Below, piece by piece: positions 2,948-42,384 of a DNA stretch of 44,299 nt. The DNA comes from a virus (taxonomy: Duplodnaviria; Caudoviricetes). The position numbers were made by a program, and so were the translations under genes. The stretch is taken from the IMG/VR virus record IMGVR_UViG_3300044759_000025, positions 1 to 44,299 of that record. One strand, written 5' to 3'. The notes under the pieces were generated by a model, which saw only the letters and a program-made list of their open reading frames with translations, did no database searches and was not told where the DNA came from. Within the stretch, counting starts at the first letter, position 1. Each line of letters opens with the position of its first letter.

Positions 2948-4235
2948 AGGCCAAAAGCTCCGCATCGGAACGGCCCGCGCCTTCAAGCCGCTCCTCGCTC
3001 CAGCTCGCTACAAAGGCGCATACGGAGGCCGCGGCTCGGGCAAGTCCCACTTCTTCGCGGAAAGCCTCGTGGAAGCCTGCATTCTGCAGCCGGGAACATC
3101 AGCCGTCTGCATCCGTGAGATCCAGCGCACTCTCACCCAATCCGCGAAAAGACTTATCGAGCAGAAGATCGAGGCTCTCGGGGTCGGGCCGCTTTTCCGC
3201 ATCTTTGAGGATCGCATAAAGACACCAGGCGATGGTCTCATCATCTTTGTCGGCATGCAGGACCATACCGCAGAGAGTATCAAGTCGCTCGAGGGTTTTC
3301 GTATCGCTTGGATCGAGGAAGCACAGACGCTTAGCCATCGCTCATTAGCCCTTCTGCGGCCCACGATCCGCGTGGAAGGCTCGGAGATCTGGGCTTCCTG
3401 GAACCCGCGCCGCAAGAGCGATGCAATAGATGAATTCCTGCGGACAGAATGCCCTCCGGGGGCCATTGTCGTCCAGAGCAATTGGCGCGACAATCCTTGG
3501 TTTACCGAGGTTCTCGAGGCCGAGCGCGTCCTCGATCAGCGCCGCTATCCGGAGCGCTATGGGCACATCTGGGAGGGCGAATATGCAAGGGCTTTCGAAG
3601 GCGCTTACTTCGCTTCTGGCCTCAATGCGGCGAAGGCGGAGGGCAGGATCGGCCGGGTCTCCGCAGATCCACTCCTGCCCATTAGAGCCTTCTGGGATCT
3701 CGGAGGATCCGGTGCCACTGCGGACGCAATGGCCATCTGGATCTGTCAATGGATTGGTCAGGAAATCAGGGTTTTGGACTACATCGAGGGGATCGGCCAG
3801 GTTCTCGCCTATTACGTCGATGAACTACGACGCAGACGACACGATAAAGCCATATGCTACCTGCCCCACGACGGAGTGAACGAGAACAACATCACCGGCA
3901 AGCGCTACGAGCAGCACCTACGGGACGCGGGCTTTGACGTGCAGCCGCCAGTGAAGAACCAAGGCCGCGGAGCCGCGGCAATGCGGGTGGAGGCAGTCAG
4001 GCGCATCTTCCCCAAGCTCTGGTTCAATGAGGCCACGACGGAGGCGGGAAGGGACGCCCTGGGCTACTATCACGAGCGCAGGGACGACGATCGGAACATC
4101 GGCCTCGGGCCCGAGCATGACTGGAGCAGTCACGCTGCGGACGCCTTCGGGCTGATGGCTATTTGCTATGAGGAACCGGCTCGTTCTGCGGGCTTTGGGC
4201 GGAAGCTGGTGTATCCAAGGCTCGGGATCGCTTGA
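2922..4235 (+). CDS. terL: Terminase large subunit (PBSX-type)
   Basis: Walker A YGGRGSGKS, Walker B WIEEAQ, coupling motif WNP, nuclease WDLG and HDWSSHAADAF. Confidence 0.96.
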   Translation: MLALPEPLEGQKLRIGTARAFKPLLAPARYKGAYGGRGSGKSHFFAESLVEACILQPGTSAVCIREIQRTLTQSAKRLIEQKIEALGVGPLFRIFEDRIKTPGDGLIIFVGMQDHTAESIKSLEGFRIAWIEEAQTLSHRSLALLRPTIRVEGSEIWASWNPRRKSDAIDEFLRTECPPGAIVVQSNWRDNPWFTEVLEAERVLDQRRYPERYGHIWEGEYARAFEGAYFASGLNAAKAEGRIGRVSADPLLPIRAFWDLGGSGATADAMAIWICQWIGQEIRVLDYIEGIGQVLAYYVDELRRRRHDKAICYLPHDGVNENNITGKRYEQHLRDAGFDVQPPVKNQGRGAAAMRVEAVRRIFPKLWFNEATTEAGRDALGYYHERRDDDRNIGLGPEHDWSSHAADAFGLMAICYEEPARSAGFGRKLVYPRLGIA

Positions 4236-4413
4236 GCGCGGCCTTACGCTCCACGAGTTCGTCGTATGCCGTGAGCCAGGGCTCATCGTAGCCGCGCAGC
4301 GTCTCCTCCTCGACCTCCTGCGGCGTCCAGTGGGTCTGGTGCAGCAGGTGATACAGGCGGCGGACCTCAGCCTTCAGATACGCCATGCGCGCAGCGGTCT
4401 TGGTAATGGCCAT
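4159..4413 (-). CDS. Hypothetical protein
   Basis: MAITKTAA...; last gene of a tightly packed leftward cluster; overlaps the terL 3' end convergently. Confidence 0.45.
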   Translation of the reverse strand: MAITKTAARMAYLKAEVRRLYHLLHQTHWTPQEVEEETLRGYDEPWLTAYDELVERKAALKRSRALDTPASAQSPQNEPVPHSK

Positions 4414-4414
4414 C

Positions 4415-4728
4415 TCATTCCGGAGCCTTCTGGCGGGCGCGGTAGGCTCGCATGCGGGCATTGTGAGTTTCACGGTTCTTGGCGTGCCATTTCTGAAAGC
4501 GCGTCGTCGGCGTTATAACGGAGCCGCGGGCTGAGGCGTTATAACAGGCTCGGGAGGTTTAACAGGTTCGATGCGCCGGCTGGAGGGTGAGCTGCTACTG
4601 CTCATCTGCGTCTTCTCGACGGGCTTGGTGCTCGGCTTCCTCGCTGGCTTGCTCTTCTGAGCGCACTTGTGCTCGTGGACGAGGTGCGCGGGGACGAGTT
4701 CGCCGCATGTGCATCGAAGCATGATCAT
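4415..4728 (-). pseudogene. Zn-finger/basic-tail hypothetical gene with an apparent -1 frameshift
   Basis: MIMLRCTCG...HKC ORF stops at 4513. The -1 frame continues VITPTTRFQKWHAKNRETHNARMRAYRARQK to a stop at 4415, adjacent to the next ATG. Confidence 0.5.
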
Positions 4729-5003
4729 GGCATGGCTTCGATCAGGGCCAGCAGGTCGGGGGGGAGCTGATCCCTGCGCCTGCCGTATCCCTGCTGGCGC
4801 TCCCATGCCGGCCTCGGAGCTTGCCGGCGCTTGCTGGGGATGCCGAAGCGGAAGAGGATGAGGCGGACGGTCGTGGGGGAAATGCCGAAGATCCCGGCGA
4901 CCTCGTTCACTGTCATGCGAGTTGTCAGGAACATGCGGCAGAGGGCGATATTGCGCTCGCGCCATAAAGCCTCTGCTTTGGCCGATGTGATCCAATCGCT
5001 CAT
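4725..5003 (-). CDS. HTH DNA-binding protein
   Basis: ERNIALCRMF...MTVNEVAGIFGISPTTVRLIL HTH pattern; overlapping start/stop with neighbours. Confidence 0.7.
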   Translation of the reverse strand: MSDWITSAKAEALWRERNIALCRMFLTTRMTVNEVAGIFGISPTTVRLILFRFGIPSKRRQAPRPAWERQQGYGRRRDQLPPDLLALIEAMP

Positions 5004-5416
5004 GGCTCTTCCTCTAGAGCCTCTTTCTTGCGGTGGCTTGACCACTCGAAGCCGATCGCCTTGTCCACCTCGTCGGCTTGGGCGCGCAGGTAGGCAGAGA
5101 GGCGGCGGATGGCATCGTCTTCGCCCTTCACCCAGTCGATGGCGCTCTGGATCGTTTTGGCGAAGTCCTGCGTGAAGGACATATCGTCCCAGAGCAGTAT
5201 GTCGATGTGGTAGCTGTCGTCATCCTGCGGATAGAGGTCGATGGGGCCGTGCCGGTCGCGAATGGTGAGCAGCACCAGCTCGATGCCGCGTCTGATGCCC
5301 TTCTCAAAGTCGGTGTCGCCGGTGGGGCAGACCATCCACTCGTCGGAGGTGCCGATAGCGGCGTTGCAGGTTGCCTTGAATTTCTTCTCCAGCGGGTCGT
5401 CTTCGTCGTCGCTCAT
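5000..5416 (-). CDS. Hypothetical acidic protein
   Basis: GC3-rich ORF coupled by an ATGA overlap to the downstream gene. Confidence 0.65.
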   Translation of the reverse strand: MSDDEDDPLEKKFKATCNAAIGTSDEWMVCPTGDTDFEKGIRRGIELVLLTIRDRHGPIDLYPQDDDSYHIDILLWDDMSFTQDFAKTIQSAIDWVKGEDDAIRRLSAYLRAQADEVDKAIGFEWSSHRKKEALEEEP

Positions 5417-5449
5417 GGAGGCCATCATGCCGCTGAAGAAGGGCAAAAT

Positions 5450-5941
5450 CTATAGACCGGAGTGCGGGGATATCGGACGCAGATGCTCCAAAGAGTGGCA
5501 GTTAGGGCAAACGATTATGAGGTTGTCCGTGGCGTTGTTTCCCGGGTTACGGTCTCTATGATGAACACACAGGATTTCAGTATGTCTATTGTAGCCGCAC
5601 ATTGAGCAGCGTTTCCAAGCGCCTCGTCGCTTCATCGCTCGCGCGAAAGATTGCGCAGACACATACGTGATGCGCCGTTCGAACCGATAGATTTCCCTGC
5701 ATTCGTGACTGCAAAATTTCCTCGGTCTCGATGGAGAATGACGTATCTGTTTTTTGCATCGAAGACAGCTACTGTGACGCGGCCGATCTGATCCGCCCAT
5801 TGCTATCGACTTGCAATGGTTGGAGCAATATTTGGCAGTATTCTTTCGATATGCTCGAACATTGAAGTTGGTCGAACAAGTGACGCAGGAGATTGCGATA
5901 CCACTCAAATCGGGGGCCTCCAAGAAAGTTATCAGTAGCAA
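5450..5941 (-). CDS. HNH endonuclease with N-terminal zinc-finger repeats (free-standing homing endonuclease)
   Basis: CxxC...YCSNHC and FCSHEC repeats, then HHRDRNPGNNATDNLIIVCPNCHSLEH; AT-richer than its flanks; start codon uncertain. Confidence 0.9.
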   Translation of the reverse strand: MLLITFLEAPDLSGIAISCVTCSTNFNVRAYRKNTAKYCSNHCKSIAMGGSDRPRHSSCLRCKKQIRHSPSRPRKFCSHECREIYRFERRITYVSAQSFARAMKRRGAWKRCSMCGYNRHTEILCVHHRDRNPGNNATDNLIIVCPNCHSLEHLRPISPHSGL

Positions 5942-5958
5942 TATACAGGAGAAACGCC

Positions 5959-6129
5959 ATGCCAGGGAAAGACGATAAGGGCATCAAGCCCGAAGGCCCG
6001 CGCGAGCCATACGCCGAGCCGGGCGAGAGCAAGGCCGGCAGGGGCGGGATCGTAAGCCCCGGCGGCACGCAGCCGAAGCCCAAGGAAGACCCGCGCAAGG
6101 ACGCCGGGGTTGCGCAGCCGAAGAAGTGA
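5959..6129 (+). CDS. Small disordered hypothetical protein (56 aa)
   Basis: AGGAG SD; MPGKDDKG...; GC3-rich codons. Confidence 0.6.
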   Translation: MPGKDDKGIKPEGPREPYAEPGESKAGRGGIVSPGGTQPKPKEDPRKDAGVAQPKK

Positions 6130-6166
6130 TCTGGCGGCCCCGGAAGGCGGCAGGGCGCGTCACCAG

Positions 6167-6319
6167 GTGCTGCATGAGTTCCGGTATGGCCTTGCGCTGG
6201 CCGTCGCGCTGGTGGCGCTCCTACCGGCGTGCAATGCGCGCTTCTCCTTCATGGAGCCCACCGTAGTCGTGCAGCCGCAGCCCTATCCCTATCCGCCGCC
6301 GGTGGTGGTGCGGCGCTGA
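6167..6319 (+). CDS. Putative small lipoprotein
   Basis: Hydrophobic GLALAVALVAL, lipobox LPA-C, then a Pro-rich tail; start uncertain. Confidence 0.45.
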   Translation: MLHEFRYGLALAVALVALLPACNARFSFMEPTVVVQPQPYPYPPPVVVRR

Positions 6320-6456
6320 AGAGGATCGCGGTCGGCTCCGCACTGCAGACCGCGTACCCCTCCGCCATGCCCCGGCTACACAATGCGCGGTCCGTGAAGC
6401 CAGGCCACTAAGCGGGCGCGCAGACCTGCAGCATAGCAGTCGCTCGAGGAACATGC

Positions 6457-7020
6457 ATGCCGAAACTATCGACCTCCGAGGTGCAAGCGCTGCTCAAGGC
6501 CGCGAAGAGCGATGCGCTGTCGGCTGCCGAAAGCTCCAAGCTCAGCGAGCGGCGCGGCAAGGCCATGGACTATTACCAGGGCGACATGGCCGCCGACATG
6601 CCGGCCGCTGCCGATCGCAGTCACGCCGTCTCCACCGACGTGGCGGATGTGGTCGAGGGCCTGATGCCTTCCATGATGGAGGTGTTCGTCGGCGGCGACC
6701 AGCCGGCGGAGTTCGTGGCGGTCGGGCAGGAGGACGAGAAGGCGGCGCAGCAAGAGACCGACTATGTGAACCATGTATTCATGCAGAAGAACAATGGCTT
6801 TGTGATCCTGTATACCTTCATCAAGGATGCGTTGCTGTCGAAGAATGCAATAGTGAAGGTGTATTGGGAAGAAAAAGAGGAGCACATCGAGGAGATGTTC
6901 TGGGGCCTGCCCGAGGCGGCCTATGGGATGATCAGCCAGAACAAGGACATCGAGATCGTCGAGCACACCGAGCGGGTGGGCATACCCGGCCAGCAGCCGA
7001 TGGAAGAGGGAGCGTATTGA
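6457..7020 (+). CDS. Portal protein, N-terminal part (187 aa)
   Basis: AMDYYQG, RSHAVSTDVADVVEGLMPSMMEVF, QETDYVNHVF and KDALLSKNAIVKVYWE match the N-terminal part of P22-like podovirus portals; AGGA SD. Confidence 0.9.
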   Translation: MPKLSTSEVQALLKAAKSDALSAAESSKLSERRGKAMDYYQGDMAADMPAAADRSHAVSTDVADVVEGLMPSMMEVFVGGDQPAEFVAVGQEDEKAAQQETDYVNHVFMQKNNGFVILYTFIKDALLSKNAIVKVYWEEKEEHIEEMFWGLPEAAYGMISQNKDIEIVEHTERVGIPGQQPMEEGAY

Positions 7021-7349
7021 TGAGGCGCAAGGACAAGGAGCGGCTGCTCGAACAGATCGTCGACCGGCAGGAGAGCCTCGACCGTGTGCGAGAGGACAAT
7101 GCGCGGCTGCGGGATGCGCTAGCGCAAATGAAGGCCGAACTGGATCTTGCGAAGCATGAACTGAAGGTCGGGCGCAGGATACAGGACGACTACAGTCGCA
7201 TGTCGGATCGGCTCCACGAAGCGCGGGCGGCGGCGAGCATCGCCAGGAGCAACCAGAAGATCCTCGAGGAGGCGCTTGCCAGCAAGAAGGCTGGCGATCC
7301 CAATTGGGAGAACGTGGCCGTCATGAAGATGCGCAAGGCCAATTACTGA
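7020..7349 (+). CDS. Coiled-coil protein (109 aa) lying between the two portal halves
   Basis: ATG overlaps the portal-N stop (TGATG), and its own stop overlaps the portal-C ATG (TGATG); heptad-like helical sequence. Confidence 0.75.
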   Translation: MRRKDKERLLEQIVDRQESLDRVREDNARLRDALAQMKAELDLAKHELKVGRRIQDDYSRMSDRLHEARAAASIARSNQKILEEALASKKAGDPNWENVAVMKMRKANY

Positions 7350-10745: not shown

Positions 10746-10893
10746 ATGGCATTAGACGCAGATACCTTCCTCACCTACGACAGTCGAGGAAACAGAGAAG
10801 ACCTGAGCGATATCATCTACAAGATCGCTCCGACGGAAACGCCGTTCGTGAGCGGCGTCGAGAAGGTGAAGGCGACTGCCACCAACCACGAGT
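10746..10893 (+). CDS. Major capsid protein, exon 1
   Basis: MALDADTFLTYDSRGNREDLSDIIYKIAPTETPF...ATATNHE is the N-terminus of the DUF5309/SU10-type major capsid family; absent from the ORF track because it is only 49 codons. Confidence 0.92.
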
Positions 10894-11725
10894 AAGGTAA
10901 AATCTGCTCGTGTAAAATTTGGCTATTTGCATTAAACTCCTTAGAGCGTCGGACCCCATAGAGGAAAAGTTCCGGTGATTGGACTAGATGCAGGTAAGGC
11001 CTTTGCTTACGTTACCGGCGTTTATCTCGGTGATGGATGTGTGACGATCCGGCGGGTAGTTGGGGAAACTCCCAAGCCTACCTTCCGGCTAAATACCATC
11101 GACGAGGATTTCGCCCGCACTACCGCTGCCGCATTGAGGCTGCTTAGCACTTACAAAGTGACGATAGGCTCTCATGCGGTTTCTAGGAGCAGCAAGCCGA
11201 ATTGGTATCTCTGTCTGGGCGATCGGGCATTGTGCGCGCGCCTTGTGGGAGACACCGAGAAGAAGCGGATAATTCCAGAGGACGTTTTCGGATGGCCTCG
11301 CGACCTGAAGCTGGCGTTCATCGCCGGTCTGATGGACAGCGAGGGCTATGTCGGGCGTAATGTCACGCCCGCAGGCAGTCGAAAATTTACTCTTGGCTAC
11401 AGGTCATGTGACCCTTGGTTTCATGATTTTATCCGACTTCTCCAATCTGTCGGCATTCTGATCGGTAAGATTGGCGCTGACACCCTCCCGTCTGGGAAGG
11501 TAGCACGCCGGTTCTCGATCAAGCTGCATTCTTGGGTAAAAAGCGGAGCCTATTTCAATATCGCGCGCAAACAGCGGCGAATTGAGGAATGGGCGGCAAA
11601 GGCAACCCCAGAGACTAATACGCCAAACATCCCTCTTGGATGAAGACAGAGTCCGATCTCCGCTCGAAAGACGGAGAGGGCGGCAGAAATGACCGCCCCG
11701 GCCCGCAAGGGCTGGTAACAGAATG
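10894..11725 (+). mobile_element. Group I self-splicing intron (832 nt) in the major capsid gene
   Basis: P1: exon CACGAGU pairs with GCUCGUG (10906-10912), U-G at the splice site. P3: UUUGGCUAU/AUACGCCAAA. P4: UUGCAU/AUGCAG. P7: GAGACUA (11611-11617)/GAGUCC (11649-11654). P8: CAUCC/GGAUG. P9 hairpins with GAAA and GCAA loops. Terminal G11725. Splicing restores H-E-W-Q-T. Confidence 0.93.
10975..11643 (+). CDS. Intron-encoded LAGLIDADG homing endonuclease (two-motif)
   Basis: Motifs FAYVTGVYLGDG and LAFIAGLMDSEG; GAGGA SD upstream of the GTG. Confidence 0.9.
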   Translation: MIGLDAGKAFAYVTGVYLGDGCVTIRRVVGETPKPTFRLNTIDEDFARTTAAALRLLSTYKVTIGSHAVSRSSKPNWYLCLGDRALCARLVGDTEKKRIIPEDVFGWPRDLKLAFIAGLMDSEGYVGRNVTPAGSRKFTLGYRSCDPWFHDFIRLLQSVGILIGKIGADTLPSGKVARRFSIKLHSWVKSGAYFNIARKQRRIEEWAAKATPETNTPNIPLG

Positions 11726-12525
11726 GGCAAACCCAAGACTTAGCCCCCGCCGCCGCCAACCACGTGCTGGAAGGCGACGACGCGACGACCGATGTGGTGA
11801 CGCCGACGACCCGTCTCGGCAACATCGCGCAGATCAGCGATAAGGTGGCGCGCGTTTCCGGCACGCAGCAGGTGATCGACAAGGCCGGGCGCGACAACGA
11901 ACTGTCCTATCAGATGGCTCTGAAAGGGCAGGAGCTGAAACGGGATATGGAATTTATCCTGCTCAGCAATACGGCCAAGGTGGCGGGCGCGGAGGCAACC
12001 CCGCGCAAGCTGGCGAGCGTGCTTTCGTGGATCGGCACCAACGACAGCTTCGGTGCGGCTCCCGGTGCATCGCCCGCCACCCTCGACGGCCTCGCCACGC
12101 GGACCGATGGCGTGCAGAGGGCCTTCACCGAGGCGCTTCTGAAGCCCGTTCTGCAGCTCATTTGGAACGAGGGCGGCAACCCGGACACCATCCTCGTGGG
12201 CGGGTTCAATAAGCAGGTCTTCAGTACCTTCACCGGCCGCAGCACGCCGCAGGAACAAGCCACGTCCAAAAAAATCGTCAATAGCGTGGAAATTTATGAA
12301 GGAGATTTCGGGACTTTGAAAGTAGTGGCTGATCGCTTCATGAGAGCAAGGGACTGCTTGATCTTGGAAATGGACAAGTGGGCAATCGCGTATCTCAGGA
12401 ATATGCAGCGCATCGACCTTGCCAGGACCGGCGACAGTGAGAGGAAGCAGATCCTAGTAGAATTTACGCTTGAGGCCCGCAACGAAAAAGCCTCGGGAAT
12501 GGTTGCCGATCTGAATACCGCCTAA
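11726..12525 (+). CDS. Major capsid protein, exon 2 (spliced product 315 aa)
   Basis: QTQDLA...VLEGDDA, RLGNIAQISDK, ELKRDME, YEGDFG and EFTLEARNEKASG match the DUF5309/SU10-type capsid. Confidence 0.93.
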
Positions 12526-21644: not shown

Positions 21645-21869
21645 ATGGCGGGCAATATTTGGGGCGAGGGTCCGCGCGGCGGGATATTCGGCGCGCGGAT
21701 AGACCCGCAGCCACAGCCGCCTCCTGTGGACCGGGAAGCGCAGGTTCTGGCACAGTTGCAGGCGGAGCAGCCGGGCTTCGAGGACAGGATTGCGCAATGG
21801 TGGGGATCGCTTCCTCCCCCAGAGCGGCAGCGATATATTCGGGCTCTTGATGAGAGGGCGAGCGAATGA
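21645..21869 (+). CDS. Small hypothetical protein
   Basis: Fills the gap between adaptor and HNH; ATGA overlap. Confidence 0.55.
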   Translation: MAGNIWGEGPRGGIFGARIDPQPQPPPVDREAQVLAQLQAEQPGFEDRIAQWWGSLPPPERQRYIRALDERASE

Positions 21870-22474
21870 AGGCACTTACAGAAGCCGAAATGGTGGGCCA
21901 GCGCTTCGGTAAGCTTGTAGTGCTTGGCCTCGCAGGGAAGGGAAAACGGCGTGGAAAGCGCTATTGGCTCTGCCGCTGCGATTGTGGGTATGAGAAATCA
22001 ATTGAGGGGCACAGCCTTCGTAACGGAAATACCAAAACATGCGGGGTGAAGTGTATCCGCACCTTCAAGCATGGACATTCATCGAGCACGTTCTTGAGCC
22101 CAACTTACCACTCCTGGATGGGTATGAAAGCGCGCTGCCGGCAAGGGTGGAGGAAGGGCGCAAAATACTATATCGGACGGGGCATTTCTTACGATCCGCA
22201 ATGGGAGAAGTTTGAGAACTTTCTTGCCGACATGGGCGAGCGTCCTGCGGAATGCGACAGCCTAGACCGCATAGATACCGATCAAGGGTATAGCAGGGCC
22301 AATTGCCGGTGGGCGACATGGACTGAGCAAGCCCGCAATAGGAGAAATTCAAAGACATTTACCTATGAGGGGCGGACTCTGCCCATAGCAGAGTGGGCTG
22401 AGAAGCGCGGTATTTCATACATCGCAGCATATAAGCGCATCATAAGACATGGCAGTTTGGAGTTGCCGAGATGA
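21866..22474 (+). CDS. HNH-like free-standing homing endonuclease
   Basis: GQRFGKLVVL, WLCRCDCG, YHSWMGMKARC and SLDRIDTDQGYSRANCRWATWTEQARNRR; AT-richer than flanks. Confidence 0.9.
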   Translation: MKALTEAEMVGQRFGKLVVLGLAGKGKRRGKRYWLCRCDCGYEKSIEGHSLRNGNTKTCGVKCIRTFKHGHSSSTFLSPTYHSWMGMKARCRQGWRKGAKYYIGRGISYDPQWEKFENFLADMGERPAECDSLDRIDTDQGYSRANCRWATWTEQARNRRNSKTFTYEGRTLPIAEWAEKRGISYIAAYKRIIRHGSLELPR

Positions 22475-26988: not shown

Positions 26989-28581
26989 ATGCCCACGTGG
27001 ACGATCACCGCGCCAGATGGCACGAAGATGTCTATCGAAGCCCATAGTCAATTGGAGGCGCTTCAAAAGGGCAAAGAGCAATTGGCCAATCCGCAGAATT
27101 CAGCAGCGGGTATGGGCAAAACGGCAGCATCAAGCCTTGTGCGCGGTCTAGGTTACGTTGCCGGAATGCCGGGCGATCTGATGGGACTGGTCGATGCCGG
27201 AGTGCGAAAGGCTCCGAAGCTGCTCGGCTATCCCGAGGCCCAGCTTCCTCAAGAGCGCACGGCGATAGGAAGGGCGACGGAAAGGTTTGCGCCGGTTCCG
27301 CCGACCAGTCAGGACGTTATATCGAGCGTCGAGAAGAACGTCACCGGACCGCTCTATCAGCCTAGGACGAAGGCCGAGAAATACTTGGGGACGGCTATGG
27401 AATTCCTGCCAGCGGCAGCGGCTGGGCCAGGGCGTCTTGCTGCGATGCCATTTCGGCAGTCCGTGAAGCAGACTACGCGCCGTGTAGTCCCGACCGCTGT
27501 CGCTCCTGCCATCGCTTCTGAGACGGCAGGGCAGTTGACGGAAGGCACGCCTTACGAGGGAGTGGCGCGCTTTGCCGGCGCGCTGGGGCCGTCAGCGCTG
27601 ACTGCAACGCGGCGGCGGCCGGCCATGCCGAGCGTCAGCGATATGGAGATGGGAAAGCAGCAAGCTTACAAGGTGGTCGACAATCTCGGCACTCGCTATA
27701 CGCCGGGCGCATATGGTCTTCTCGTATCGTCTATTCGCAACAAGGCAAAGCAACAGGGCATCAGCCCGATACGCCATGCGAATGCCCTGTCCATGATTGA
27801 TGACATGGAGAAGACCTATCCGGGGATGTTCGCCGTTCCGGGCTCGCCAACATTGACTGAATTGGACATGCTTCGACAGAATGTCCGTGACGATCTGATG
27901 GGCAACAAGGTAGACGCTCGGTTCGGCGAAATGATCATTGATCGGATCGATGCTTTCGTTGATATAGCCGGCCCGATGCACACGACAAGTATGCAGGGAT
28001 CACGTATTGCCGCTGATGCGATGCGCAAAGCGCGGGCCGCCAATACTCAATGGCGCAAGGCGGAATTGCTCGAGTATGAACTGGACAAGGCCCGGCGTCA
28101 GGCGGCGGTCACCGGCTCGGGCGGCAATGTCGAGAATACGGTGCGGCAGGCGGTCAACCGCATTTTGAACAAGCCGGCTCAATTGCGATCCTTCACTGCG
28201 CAAGAGCGTGAGATCATGCGTCAGATCGCTGACCCAGCCAGCACAAAGCAGGACATGCTGCGACTGGCTGGAAAGTTCTCTCCGGCCGGGAATGGGCTGA
28301 TAGCGTGGCTCACTGTTGCTGCTTCAGTAGGCGTTGATCCGCTGATGGCTGTTCCGGCTGCAGCGGGCGCAGCAGCCAAAAGGGCATCAGAAGCCGCGAC
28401 GCAGGGGCGGGTGAATAATCTGGAGCAACTGGTGCGGACGGGCGGTATCACTCCCTCTCCACAGTCGGAGGCTGCGCGGCAGATGGCCGTCACGACGATG
28501 CTTCAGGGGCCACGATCAGCTGGCCAGCAACCGCAACAGTCGCCGTTCCCCTATCTACGGCCACCGCAGACGGTACCGTAG
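26989..28581 (+). CDS. Putative DNA ejection protein
   Basis: TITAPDGTK N-terminus and YQPRT motif; Ala-rich helical; synteny. Confidence 0.65.
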   Translation: MPTWTITAPDGTKMSIEAHSQLEALQKGKEQLANPQNSAAGMGKTAASSLVRGLGYVAGMPGDLMGLVDAGVRKAPKLLGYPEAQLPQERTAIGRATERFAPVPPTSQDVISSVEKNVTGPLYQPRTKAEKYLGTAMEFLPAAAAGPGRLAAMPFRQSVKQTTRRVVPTAVAPAIASETAGQLTEGTPYEGVARFAGALGPSALTATRRRPAMPSVSDMEMGKQQAYKVVDNLGTRYTPGAYGLLVSSIRNKAKQQGISPIRHANALSMIDDMEKTYPGMFAVPGSPTLTELDMLRQNVRDDLMGNKVDARFGEMIIDRIDAFVDIAGPMHTTSMQGSRIAADAMRKARAANTQWRKAELLEYELDKARRQAAVTGSGGNVENTVRQAVNRILNKPAQLRSFTAQEREIMRQIADPASTKQDMLRLAGKFSPAGNGLIAWLTVAASVGVDPLMAVPAAAGAAAKRASEAATQGRVNNLEQLVRTGGITPSPQSEAARQMAVTTMLQGPRSAGQQPQQSPFPYLRPPQTVP

Positions 28582-36596: not shown

Positions 36597-36764
36597 TCAG
36601 TCGCTCCCGCGATCCTCTTCCTCAGCCGCCCTGCCGGCCTTGCAGTCGCAGTATCTCCAGCCATTGCCATCTTCAGGGCCCTTGAAGAGATAAACGCCCT
36701 CGTCCTTGCACTTCAGGCAGTCGTAAGGCAGCGGCTTGGCGTGTTCGCTCTCGTGCTCGCTCAT
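36597..36764 (-). CDS. Small Zn-finger protein (55 aa)
   Basis: Read by hand: CLKCKDEG...YCDCKAG; ATGA coupling. Confidence 0.6.
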   Translation of the reverse strand: MSEHESEHAKPLPYDCLKCKDEGVYLFKGPEDGNGWRYCDCKAGRAAEEEDRGSD

Positions 36765-37084
36765 CGTAAGACAGTCTCCCCGTTCATCAGCTTCTTGTAT
36801 TTCGAGTTCCGCGAGCCCGGCATGGTGGACTTGCGCCGGATGCCCATCCGCTTATCAGCAAGCCGCCGGGTCTTATCGATCTCAGAGCGGCGCTCCTGGG
36901 TGGTCAGTCCGTGGCATGATCGGCAGAGCACGATGCAGTTTTCCAGCGTGGCCTCGCCCCCGAGATAGGCCTCGATCCGGTGGTGATATTCCAGCCGCTG
37001 CTTGCAGCCGCACAACTCGCAGCGGCCATTGGCGCGCAGGAAAGCATCACGGCGCACGGCCTTGGAAAACTCGCGTCTATCCAT
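36761..37084 (-). CDS. HNH endonuclease (early region)
   Basis: RREFSKAV...GRCELCG...EYHH...GGEATLENCIVLCRSCH. Confidence 0.88.
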   Translation of the reverse strand: MDRREFSKAVRRDAFLRANGRCELCGCKQRLEYHHRIEAYLGGEATLENCIVLCRSCHGLTTQERRSEIDKTRRLADKRMGIRRKSTMPGSRNSKYKKLMNGETVLR

Positions 37085-37106
37085 TGCCGTGCGCCTAGGC
37101 ATTAGA

Positions 37107-37274
37107 TCAGAAGCACGTCGTCGTGTTGCCGTATGTCGTGCAGGTGGTCGTGCCGCTATTGCTGCTACCCGTCTCAAAGCATGTCGTCGTATTGCCGTAC
37201 GTGGTGCAGGTGACGCCGGCCCACGCATTGCTCGCGAACAGGACGATCCCGACAGTCATCAAAACTCTACGCAT
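37107..37274 (-). CDS. Secreted peptide with duplicated CTTYGNTTTC motif
   Basis: Signal peptide ending AWA, then two TCTTYGNTTTCF units; AAGGGAG SD. Confidence 0.75.
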   Translation of the reverse strand: MRRVLMTVGIVLFASNAWAGVTCTTYGNTTTCFETGSSNSGTTTCTTYGNTTTCF

Positions 37275-41859: not shown

Positions 41860-42384
41860 ATGGCCAAGCGCTGCTACCCAGCCTGGAGCGAGGAGCGCGT
41901 GGAGCGCCTGCGCGTCCTATGGTTCAAGGGCTTTAGCGCTTCCGAGTGCGGCATGGAGTTGGGCTGCTCGCGCAACGCCTGCATCGGTGTCGTGCATCGC
42001 CGCGGCTGGCACTACAAGGAGCGGCAGCCGCGACCCCTGGCATCGCGGGTCCGGCATTTGGTTATCCGCCCGCCGCCTCCAGAGCCGCCTCCAAAGCCGA
42101 AGCGGGTCCACAAGCCAAAGCCCGTTGCTCAGTTGCTCGCTAGCGAGCAGCCAGTGAGCAAGGAGCCTCCCGCGCCCTTCACGCTCTCCCTTCTAGAGCT
42201 AGGGCCACGGCACTGCAAATGGCCCTGCGACAGCGACGTGCTTCCGTTCACGTTCTGCGGTGCATTGCGGGAGGAGGGAAGCTCGTACTGCCCGAAGCAC
42301 CATTATCGCGCCCACTACAAAGGCACGCAGGCGGACATCGATCGCACGATCAAAGGGTATCATTTCGGGAAGGCGGCCGCATGA
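41860..42384 (+). CDS. gcrA: GcrA-family cell-cycle regulator
   Basis: WSEERVERLRVLWFKGFSASECGMELGCSRNACIGVVHR and SLLELGPRHCKWP...FCG...SYCPKH. Confidence 0.9.
   Translation: MAKRCYPAWSEERVERLRVLWFKGFSASECGMELGCSRNACIGVVHRRGWHYKERQPRPLASRVRHLVIRPPPPEPPPKPKRVHKPKPVAQLLASEQPVSKEPPAPFTLSLLELGPRHCKWPCDSDVLPFTFCGALREEGSSYCPKHHYRAHYKGTQADIDRTIKGYHFGKAAA

Follow-up and report, generated by a model that had tools for sequence, protein, structure and literature searches.

A probable group I intron with a predicted LAGLIDADG endonuclease in the SU10-type major capsid gene of a phage

The analysed stretch of viral DNA (44,299 nt; in the following called the window) corresponds to a 44.3 kb record that probably represents a near-complete circular genome, because its first 129 bases recur at the end with one difference. 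Its genes include those for a terminase, an SU10-type portal, a scaffold, the capsid protein, an adaptor, an integrase (PF00589), ERF, NinB and a GcrA-like protein. The closest cultured relative is Bradyrhizobium phage ppBeUSDA76-2 (capsid 58%, terminase 70%). Judging from the integrase, the GcrA-like gene, this relative and the SU10 genes, the original prediction of a temperate podophage of an alphaproteobacterium appears reasonable. The three sequencing runs that contain half of the stretch or more all come from sediment metagenomes, and two may be its source.

The gene for the GcrA-like cell-cycle regulator (41860-42384) scores 91.6 bits with PF07750, under the NCBIfam equivalog cut-off. 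Free-standing HNH-type genes are located at 5450-5941 (-), 21866-22474 (+) and 36761-37228 (-); one of these lies between terminase and portal and is encoded on the other strand. The portal gene is split into 6457-7020 (PF23899 2-163) and 7349-9190 (PF23899 171-592), the second piece opening with a long proline-rich segment, and a 109-aa coiled-coil-like ORF lies between the two (7020-7349). No intron core was found in the split portal region. In ppBeUSDA76-2 (L269) the portal is likewise split (4167-4775 and 4754-6436), without the middle ORF and with the larger piece unannotated.

The SU10-type major capsid gene (10746-12525) is broken by an insert at 10894-11725. Exon 1 ends with CAC GAG T, from where the unspliced frame runs at once into TAA, and exon 2 opens with GG CAA ACC at 11726. 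When the insert is removed, the joined frame encodes 315 aa and H-E-W-Q-T is restored, just as the original prediction had it. The frame has a single terminal stop and reads ...TNHEWQTQD... at the join, and PF17236 runs colinear across it; the predicted ligated junction reads CACGAGU-GGCAAACC. As the unspliced frame stops at the 5′ boundary, the claim that this gene needs the insert removed at the RNA level holds as well. Both exons are intact and colinear with intron-less capsids, and with 31.9 and 282.6 bits they exceed the PF17236 cut-off of 24.1, which marks the product as an SU10-type major capsid protein. The same arrangement was found at 100% identity on a second contig (L001), and a search with exon 2 yielded 59 capsid loci, with the endonuclease gene solely in the contig identical to the window.

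For comparison we used 51 capsid loci (L002-L052), 49 of which have an uninterrupted capsid frame. At the junction these 49 read HQWQT (24), HEWQT (16), HEWQV (3) or HEWTT (1), with five unparsed by the script, so that 40 carry the proposed H-E-W-Q-T segment or its HQWQT variant. Eight alternative U/G junction pairs keep the frame, each deleting or altering H-E-W-Q-T. Translation of exon 2 alone from GTG 11764 would lose 62 N-terminal residues, and an SD-like word is absent there. An intein was also rejected, given the stop at the 5′ boundary and an ORF in a different frame with its own start and stop. A promoter scan gave two weak 9/12 matches.

Table 1 Features of the interrupted capsid gene. 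Paired cells and pairs with two-sided changes refer to 49 introns, which are related rows and hence not independent trials.
Feature	Position	Strand	Paired cells	Two-sided changes	Details
Exon 1, major capsid gene	10746..10893	+			49 codons and U of Trp50; PF17236 5-44; phrog_1328
Group I intron (predicted)	10894..11725	+			832 nt; terminal G11725; junction called from protein only equals RNA-filtered call
P1	10887..10912	+	338/343	6/7	Exon 10887-10893 with guide 10906-10912; U10893-G10906 wobble; UAA straddles splice site; pairing partly circular (see text)
P3, 5′ strand	10918..10923	+	293/294	5/6	Pairs with 11622-11627
P4/P5/P5a and P6 5′ strand (10993-94)	10928..10994	+			49-row pair counts
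P4	10928-33/10987-92	+	286/294	4/6
P5	10938-40/10981-83	+	146/147	2/3
P5a	10947-53/10971-77	+	316/343	7/7	A-rich run 10965-68
Endonuclease start candidate	10960..10977	+			SD-like AGAGGA 10960-65; GTG 10975-77; inside P5a
Predicted two-motif LAGLIDADG homing endonuclease ORF	10975..11643	+			222 aa; PF14528; PI-SceI E 2.5e-5; inserted in P6
P6 3′ strand (11606-07), P7, P3 3′ strand, P8	11606..11654	+			Rfam partial match and pair counts
P6	10993-94/11606-07	+	98/98	2/2
P7	11611-16/11650-54	+	240/245	1/5	Holds G-binding site
P8	11628-32/11638-42	+	209/240	5/5
P9	11657-77	+	251/294	4/6	GAAA loop
P9.1	11678-98	+			GNRA-capped hairpin (GAAA loop)
P9.2	11699-714	+			GNRA-capped hairpin (GCAA loop)
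Exon 2, major capsid gene	11726..12525	+			PF17236 46-291, E 5e-84; solved capsids 9ny2, 7z45

Relatives were collected with the intron ORF, yielding 49 viral loci, the best 80 of 97 metagenomic loci and one genome locus, sets that are redundant. Both exons were present in 91 of these 130 listed loci; a boundary was called in 74 and not in 17. The 74 introns formed 55 clusters at 90% identity, of which 49 were kept after dropping L103, L106 and L118, whose 3′ call was evidently wrong, and L110, L113 and L157, which the R-motif expression missed.

Over the resulting 49 introns, all less than 90% identical, P1, P3, P4, P5, P5a, P8 and P9 beat all 500 shuffles and all slid controls. For the variable helices, slid controls were paired in at most 61% and shuffles in at most 60-88%. 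P6 and P7 are too invariant to be separated from shuffles and are conserved rather than covarying. The 99% pairing of P1 is partly circular because it served as a filter for the boundary calls; the best junction by protein only equals the RNA-filtered junction in 48 of 49 introns, and the guide follows the exon sequence where the insertion site shifts. The P4 of the window departs from the family majority at three pairs, yet still pairs. In group I introns, the G-binding site lies in P7 together with a coupled bulged base; here this site changes en bloc, reading GAG/CC in 44 and ACG/CT in five of the 49. When folded against shuffled sequences, the P9 region (11657..11714) had a z-score of -4.4 with none of 200 shuffles as stable, and P1 a z-score of about -4. 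The P4-P5a region alone folded no better than shuffles (z 0.17), and therefore the evidence for this part comes from covariation. Every group I hallmark had originally been proposed to be present; P1 with its U-G pair, P3 to P9, the GNRA hairpins and the terminal G were recovered, whereas P10 comprises 2 bp in the window intron (0-10 bp in relatives) and a P9.0 was not identified there.

P7 and the 3′ strand of P3 are separated by only 4-5 nt in all 49 introns, and P2 and P7.1 are absent from this family. The T4 introns belong to subgroup IA2, which is defined by P7.1/P7.2 between P7 and P3. The window intron lacks P2 and P7.1 and therefore is not of this type. Presumably it is IB-like, as the missing P2 and P7.1 fit IB definitions. 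According to the available part of PMC11835236, more than half of the group I introns of viruses are of type IA2.

No Rfam model matched at gathering across the whole window, which, taken alone, is a result that the original prediction had named as speaking against an intron. RF00028, the model proposed for this search, gave 21 bits (E 0.0098) over R/S/P8/P9, below its gathering score of 50 bits. The score is low because a P6 insert of roughly 610 nt, holding the 222-aa ORF, splits the match; a P6 LAGLIDADG insert acting likewise is described in the accessible text of PMC6125680. ORF-less sister introns located at the same site within the Trp codon (site B) or 4 nt upstream reached 70-79 bits in 5/5 scored cases; all 14 loci scored carry an RF00028 match above 50 bits. 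We also built a model of the 3′ core only, from 11 sister introns with the window left out. It produced a single match in the window, at 11598-11717 with 81.5 bits; three capsid loci lacking an intron and three loci with a free-standing endonuclease gave no match. The ORF-less sisters have a longer P5 extension and the same A-rich run. In L219 and L226, the intron at site A (4 nt upstream of site B) holds another ORF, which is shorter and has a LAGLIDADG-like start; this suggests ORF exchange at one capsid site.

The intron ORF contains the motifs GVYLGDG (D20) and AGLMDSEG (E123), and D20, E123 and K97 are invariant in 12 sequences. A profile search found PI-SceI and PI-PfuI. In the alignment, D20 and E123 fall on D218 and D326 of PI-SceI and K97 is one position off K301; these three PI-SceI residues are catalytic. 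The predicted structure (pLDDT 90.6) matches the two-motif fold of I-DmoI, PI-SceI, PI-PfuI and I-Tsp061I with a TM-score of about 0.6-0.7 and E of about 1e-8, whereas identity to these monomeric enzymes from archaeal introns and inteins is 16-18%. By motifs, PF14528 and modelled fold, the ORF thus appears to be an intact two-motif LAGLIDADG endonuclease of the I-DmoI/PI-SceI type, in agreement with the original prediction. Compared with six relatives, third codon positions differ about twice as much as positions 1-2. The ORF is intact in all 49 introns, a set chosen by protein similarity. A tblastn search with the endonuclease against 50,697 GenBank phage records gave no match, and the two core halves, compared by blastn with cultured phages, gave only four chance 31-nt Gordonia hits (E 0.5).

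The ORF starts within P5a and ends in P8, overlapping the core by about 20 nt at one end (P5a-P5-P4-P6) and by 38 nt at the other (P6-P7-P3-P8), and it overlaps both ends likewise in 48 of 49 relatives. GTG 10975-77, located in the P5a 3′ strand, with the preceding AGAGGA is the likely translation start. An in-frame start codon occurs in all 49 introns, no further than 45 nt ahead of the P4 3′ strand, and all keep the A-rich run, which precedes the start; an SD-like word occurs in 37 of 49, and in 48 the stop codon is located within the 3′ core strands or past them.

With boundaries, conserved helices, intact ORF and predicted fold observed or computed, we consider it highly probable that the capsid gene contains a complete group I intron, which likely self-splices and likely homes via its own LAGLIDADG endonuclease. 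According to group I chemistry, the core would fold, a free guanosine bound in P7 would attack after U10893 in P1, and exon 1 would then attack after G11725, converting U|AA to U|GG (Trp50). As is known of LAGLIDADG biology, relatives, whether co-infecting or resident, would be cut by the monomeric enzyme in their intron-less H-E-W-Q-T region, and the intron would be copied into them during repair. Before splicing, the ribosome would halt at the UAA formed on the 5′ splice site; the idea of an exon-boundary stop releasing the ribosome is found in section 11 of PMC3984707, in the text available. The ribosome site and start of the ORF would be held in P5a, and its last codons would form P6, P7, P3 and P8. 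Because the ORF overlaps the core, one RNA could not be nuclease mRNA and ribozyme at once. This anatomy would hold nuclease output low and capsid splicing dominant.

The exclusion between folding and translation is inferred by likeness to I-TevI and 'core creep'. In the accessible text on T4 td/I-TevI, the ORF likewise sits in the P6 loop with its 3′ end reaching into P7, the ribosome site is held in RNA structure and 'core creep' is described (Edgell et al. 2011, PMC3073962); an in-frame stop after exon 1 is shared, too (PMC3984707 section 11). In contrast to the window ORF, I-TevI is a GIY-YIG enzyme with an overlap of 20 nt, at the 3′ end only (PMC3073962).

The intron might also be real and need the LAGLIDADG protein as a maturase, which would make capsid synthesis depend on protein and RNA. 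We regard this as unlikely. The LAGLIDADG protein of the Thermotoga 23S intron has maturase-like activity (PMC3984707, as far as available), the P5abc of the window is shorter than in the ORF-less sisters, P4-P5a folds weakly alone, P10 is short, and the ORFs are intact in 49/49, though selected by protein similarity. However, ORF-less sisters occupy the same capsid site, and both acidic active-site positions are invariant, which fits DNA cleavage.

Within the family, SU10-type capsid sequence adjoins 121 of the 130 listed endonuclease-relative loci (the metagenomic ones being the best 80 of 97). Nine are not beside a capsid gene, and the eight inspected are free-standing. Among the latter, L115-L116 lack an intron core and lie between phage head-completion genes, and L125, L133, L140, L141, L163 and L193, also coreless, lie on bacterial contigs with a common short upstream element. 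Of the 49 introns, 28 interrupt the gene before the Glu/Gln codon (site A). Another 18 share the position of the window intron inside the Trp codon, 4 nt further downstream (site B), and three lie elsewhere. The stop follows at codon 0 in 18/18 site B introns and within two codons in 48/49 overall.

The window capsid groups with the intron-less L002 (85%) and L003 (77%; SH-aLRT 100), and its endonuclease with introns in capsids that are 62-68% identical. In the nearest intron-bearing clade (L126-L131), identity to the window is 0.60-0.65 for the endonuclease and 0.62-0.68 for the capsid; such similar values do not prove recent transfer. On a capsid tree of 41 intron-bearing and 17 intron-less proteins, intron presence or absence changes 10 times, at least eight changes being forced by starred branches, a patchy distribution that could reflect loss rather than homing. 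Around the insertion site, the closest intron-less alleles match in 15/20 bases. No intron-less twin of the window phage was found, and co-conversion, as a local rise in identity at the insertion site versus L002-L004, was not seen.

These data bear on whether the intron splices but is an old vertical resident, repeatedly lost, with an endonuclease that no longer homes. The like divergence of endonuclease and capsid between the window and L126-L131 would fit, as would the ORF-less forms and the finding of no identical intron in divergent capsids. We nevertheless consider such a history quite unlikely, given that the codon-position pattern of the ORF points to purifying selection, that endonuclease relatives occur also at capsid codon about 110 and free-standing, and that introns of sites A and B are interspersed on the endonuclease tree (8 and 6 changes, of which starred branches force only 2; bootstrap trees with one site change, 0%).

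RNA contigs from three of four listed RNA runs, at an uninformative depth of 2-5, contained no spliced junction and left the 5′ site uncovered. One DNA run, also assembled, likewise gave contigs of depth 2-5 without the joint or the 5′ site. RNA contig X7 (11451-11750), which has a depth of about 5 and is possibly DNA-derived, continues across the 3′ site for 25 nt without being spliced. The gene at 26989-28581 was rejected as a second capsid gene: its match to phrog_21712, 'major head protein', is a probable label carry-over, and the 530-aa product is probably an internal virion protein. A dead capsid pseudogene in a defective prophage, or an assembly artefact as the origin of the insert, is very improbable. 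The shallow RNA contigs without splicing and this PHROGs label could be cited in favour, but the arrangement recurs at 100% in L001 and in more than 100 other loci, both exons are intact, and the second gene is without a Pfam or PDB capsid match and has mostly hypothetical proteins as relatives.

Returning to the self-splicing, homing intron, we searched for its RNA lineage with two exact, protein-free R-P8-S core patterns derived from capsid introns, which found 63 viral loci in 47 clusters. The host gene encodes a capsid protein in 53 of the 63 and a recognised polymerase, reductase or terminase in none. Of these calls, 29 came from the SU10 profile, 19 from a PHROGs comparison of the downstream frame, in which several matches are weak (E 5e-5 to 6e-4), and a further five make up the total. 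At least six PHROG head families are represented. Four further loci form an unnamed family that one member ties to a head family, with L257 assigned by near-identity to L255; five hosts have no assignment and one is mitochondrial-looking (cox3-like). The latter, L253, is a viral-collection record that looks fungal mitochondrial and combines the same core pattern with GIY-YIG and LAGLIDADG ORFs. Because the patterns were derived from capsid introns, the 53/63 shows the preference of one lineage, not of phage introns at large.

More doubtful is a wider reading, in which a capsid-specialist lineage inhabits the capsid genes of many unrelated phage families, with P5a, into which the endonuclease-bearing branch would have built its ribosome site and start codon, as a conserved fold-or-translate switch, and with the element as a co-infection weapon and no mere passive parasite. 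The intron would then ride the most abundant late mRNA and meter its nuclease against the conserved capsid motif of rivals. An intron endonuclease of phage PhiPA3 reportedly acts in interference competition (PMC11620839).

The element type is already known, with published capsid precedent, and its anatomy is a variant. In mycobacteriophage LittleE, the capsid gene holds an intron of 819 bp with an antisense, LAGLIDADG-like ORF, gp14; RT-PCR and N-terminal sequencing demonstrated that this intron is spliced (Pope et al. 2013, PMC3706429, available text). Both are group I-type introns of about 820 nt with a LAGLIDADG-like ORF in the major capsid gene of a temperate or, for the window, presumably temperate phage, and our 3′-core model scores 29.7 bits (E 2e-7) on the LittleE intron. 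The LittleE ORF differs in being antisense, 177 aa long and placed in the P9 region, on the 3′ side of the core, with 21% identity over 70 aa, whereas the window ORF is sense and two-motif and lies in P6 with an overlap into the core on either side. The two phages also differ in capsid family and in host phylum, LittleE being a siphovirus of Actinobacteria. Group I introns, sometimes several per gene, also occur in major capsid genes of crAss-like phages (Yutin et al. 2021, PMC7886860) and Tuc2009 (as cited in PMC3706429); these are other phage groups, and no comparable RNA structure or endonuclease family is described in the available parts. With these precedents, and with 121 of 130 listed relatives in SU10-type capsids, the original view of such an intron as unusual has to be corrected. 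According to the accessible text of PMC3984707, the enzymes usually encoded by phage introns are GIY-YIG, HNH, PD-(D/E)xK and EDxHD. The available parts of PMC10580990, PMC8557907, PMC12880540 and bioRxiv 2023.10.13.562163 contain no capsid intron of this kind. No published description of the family was found in a literature search that covered subscription papers thinly, and the supplements of PMC11835236 and PMC12350094 might list members. In this literature, neither a family across many podophage capsids with two sites 4 nt apart nor the capsid-centred RNA lineage (53/63 pattern loci, no DNA-metabolism gene) was found.

Phage group I introns are said to favour nucleotide and DNA metabolism genes, for a reason called mysterious (PMC12350094, available part). 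The capsid-centred lineage, and an intron endonuclease unmatched in the GenBank phage records, suggest that this bias reflects which phages were cultured. The family lends itself as a natural experiment on guide-sequence retargeting, because its introns occupy two sites 4 nt apart plus others further along, and on how a ribozyme core can double as coding sequence. Dozens of compact, intact monomeric LAGLIDADG enzymes whose targets can be predicted come with it. For annotation, intron-split capsid genes get mis-called as fragments and slip past Rfam. Two to four interruptions were seen in the SU10-type capsid genes of L106, L109, L167, L173, L082, L145, L212 and L248, near codons 25-30, 48-50, 80, 110, 160 and 240, and some of these score as group I.
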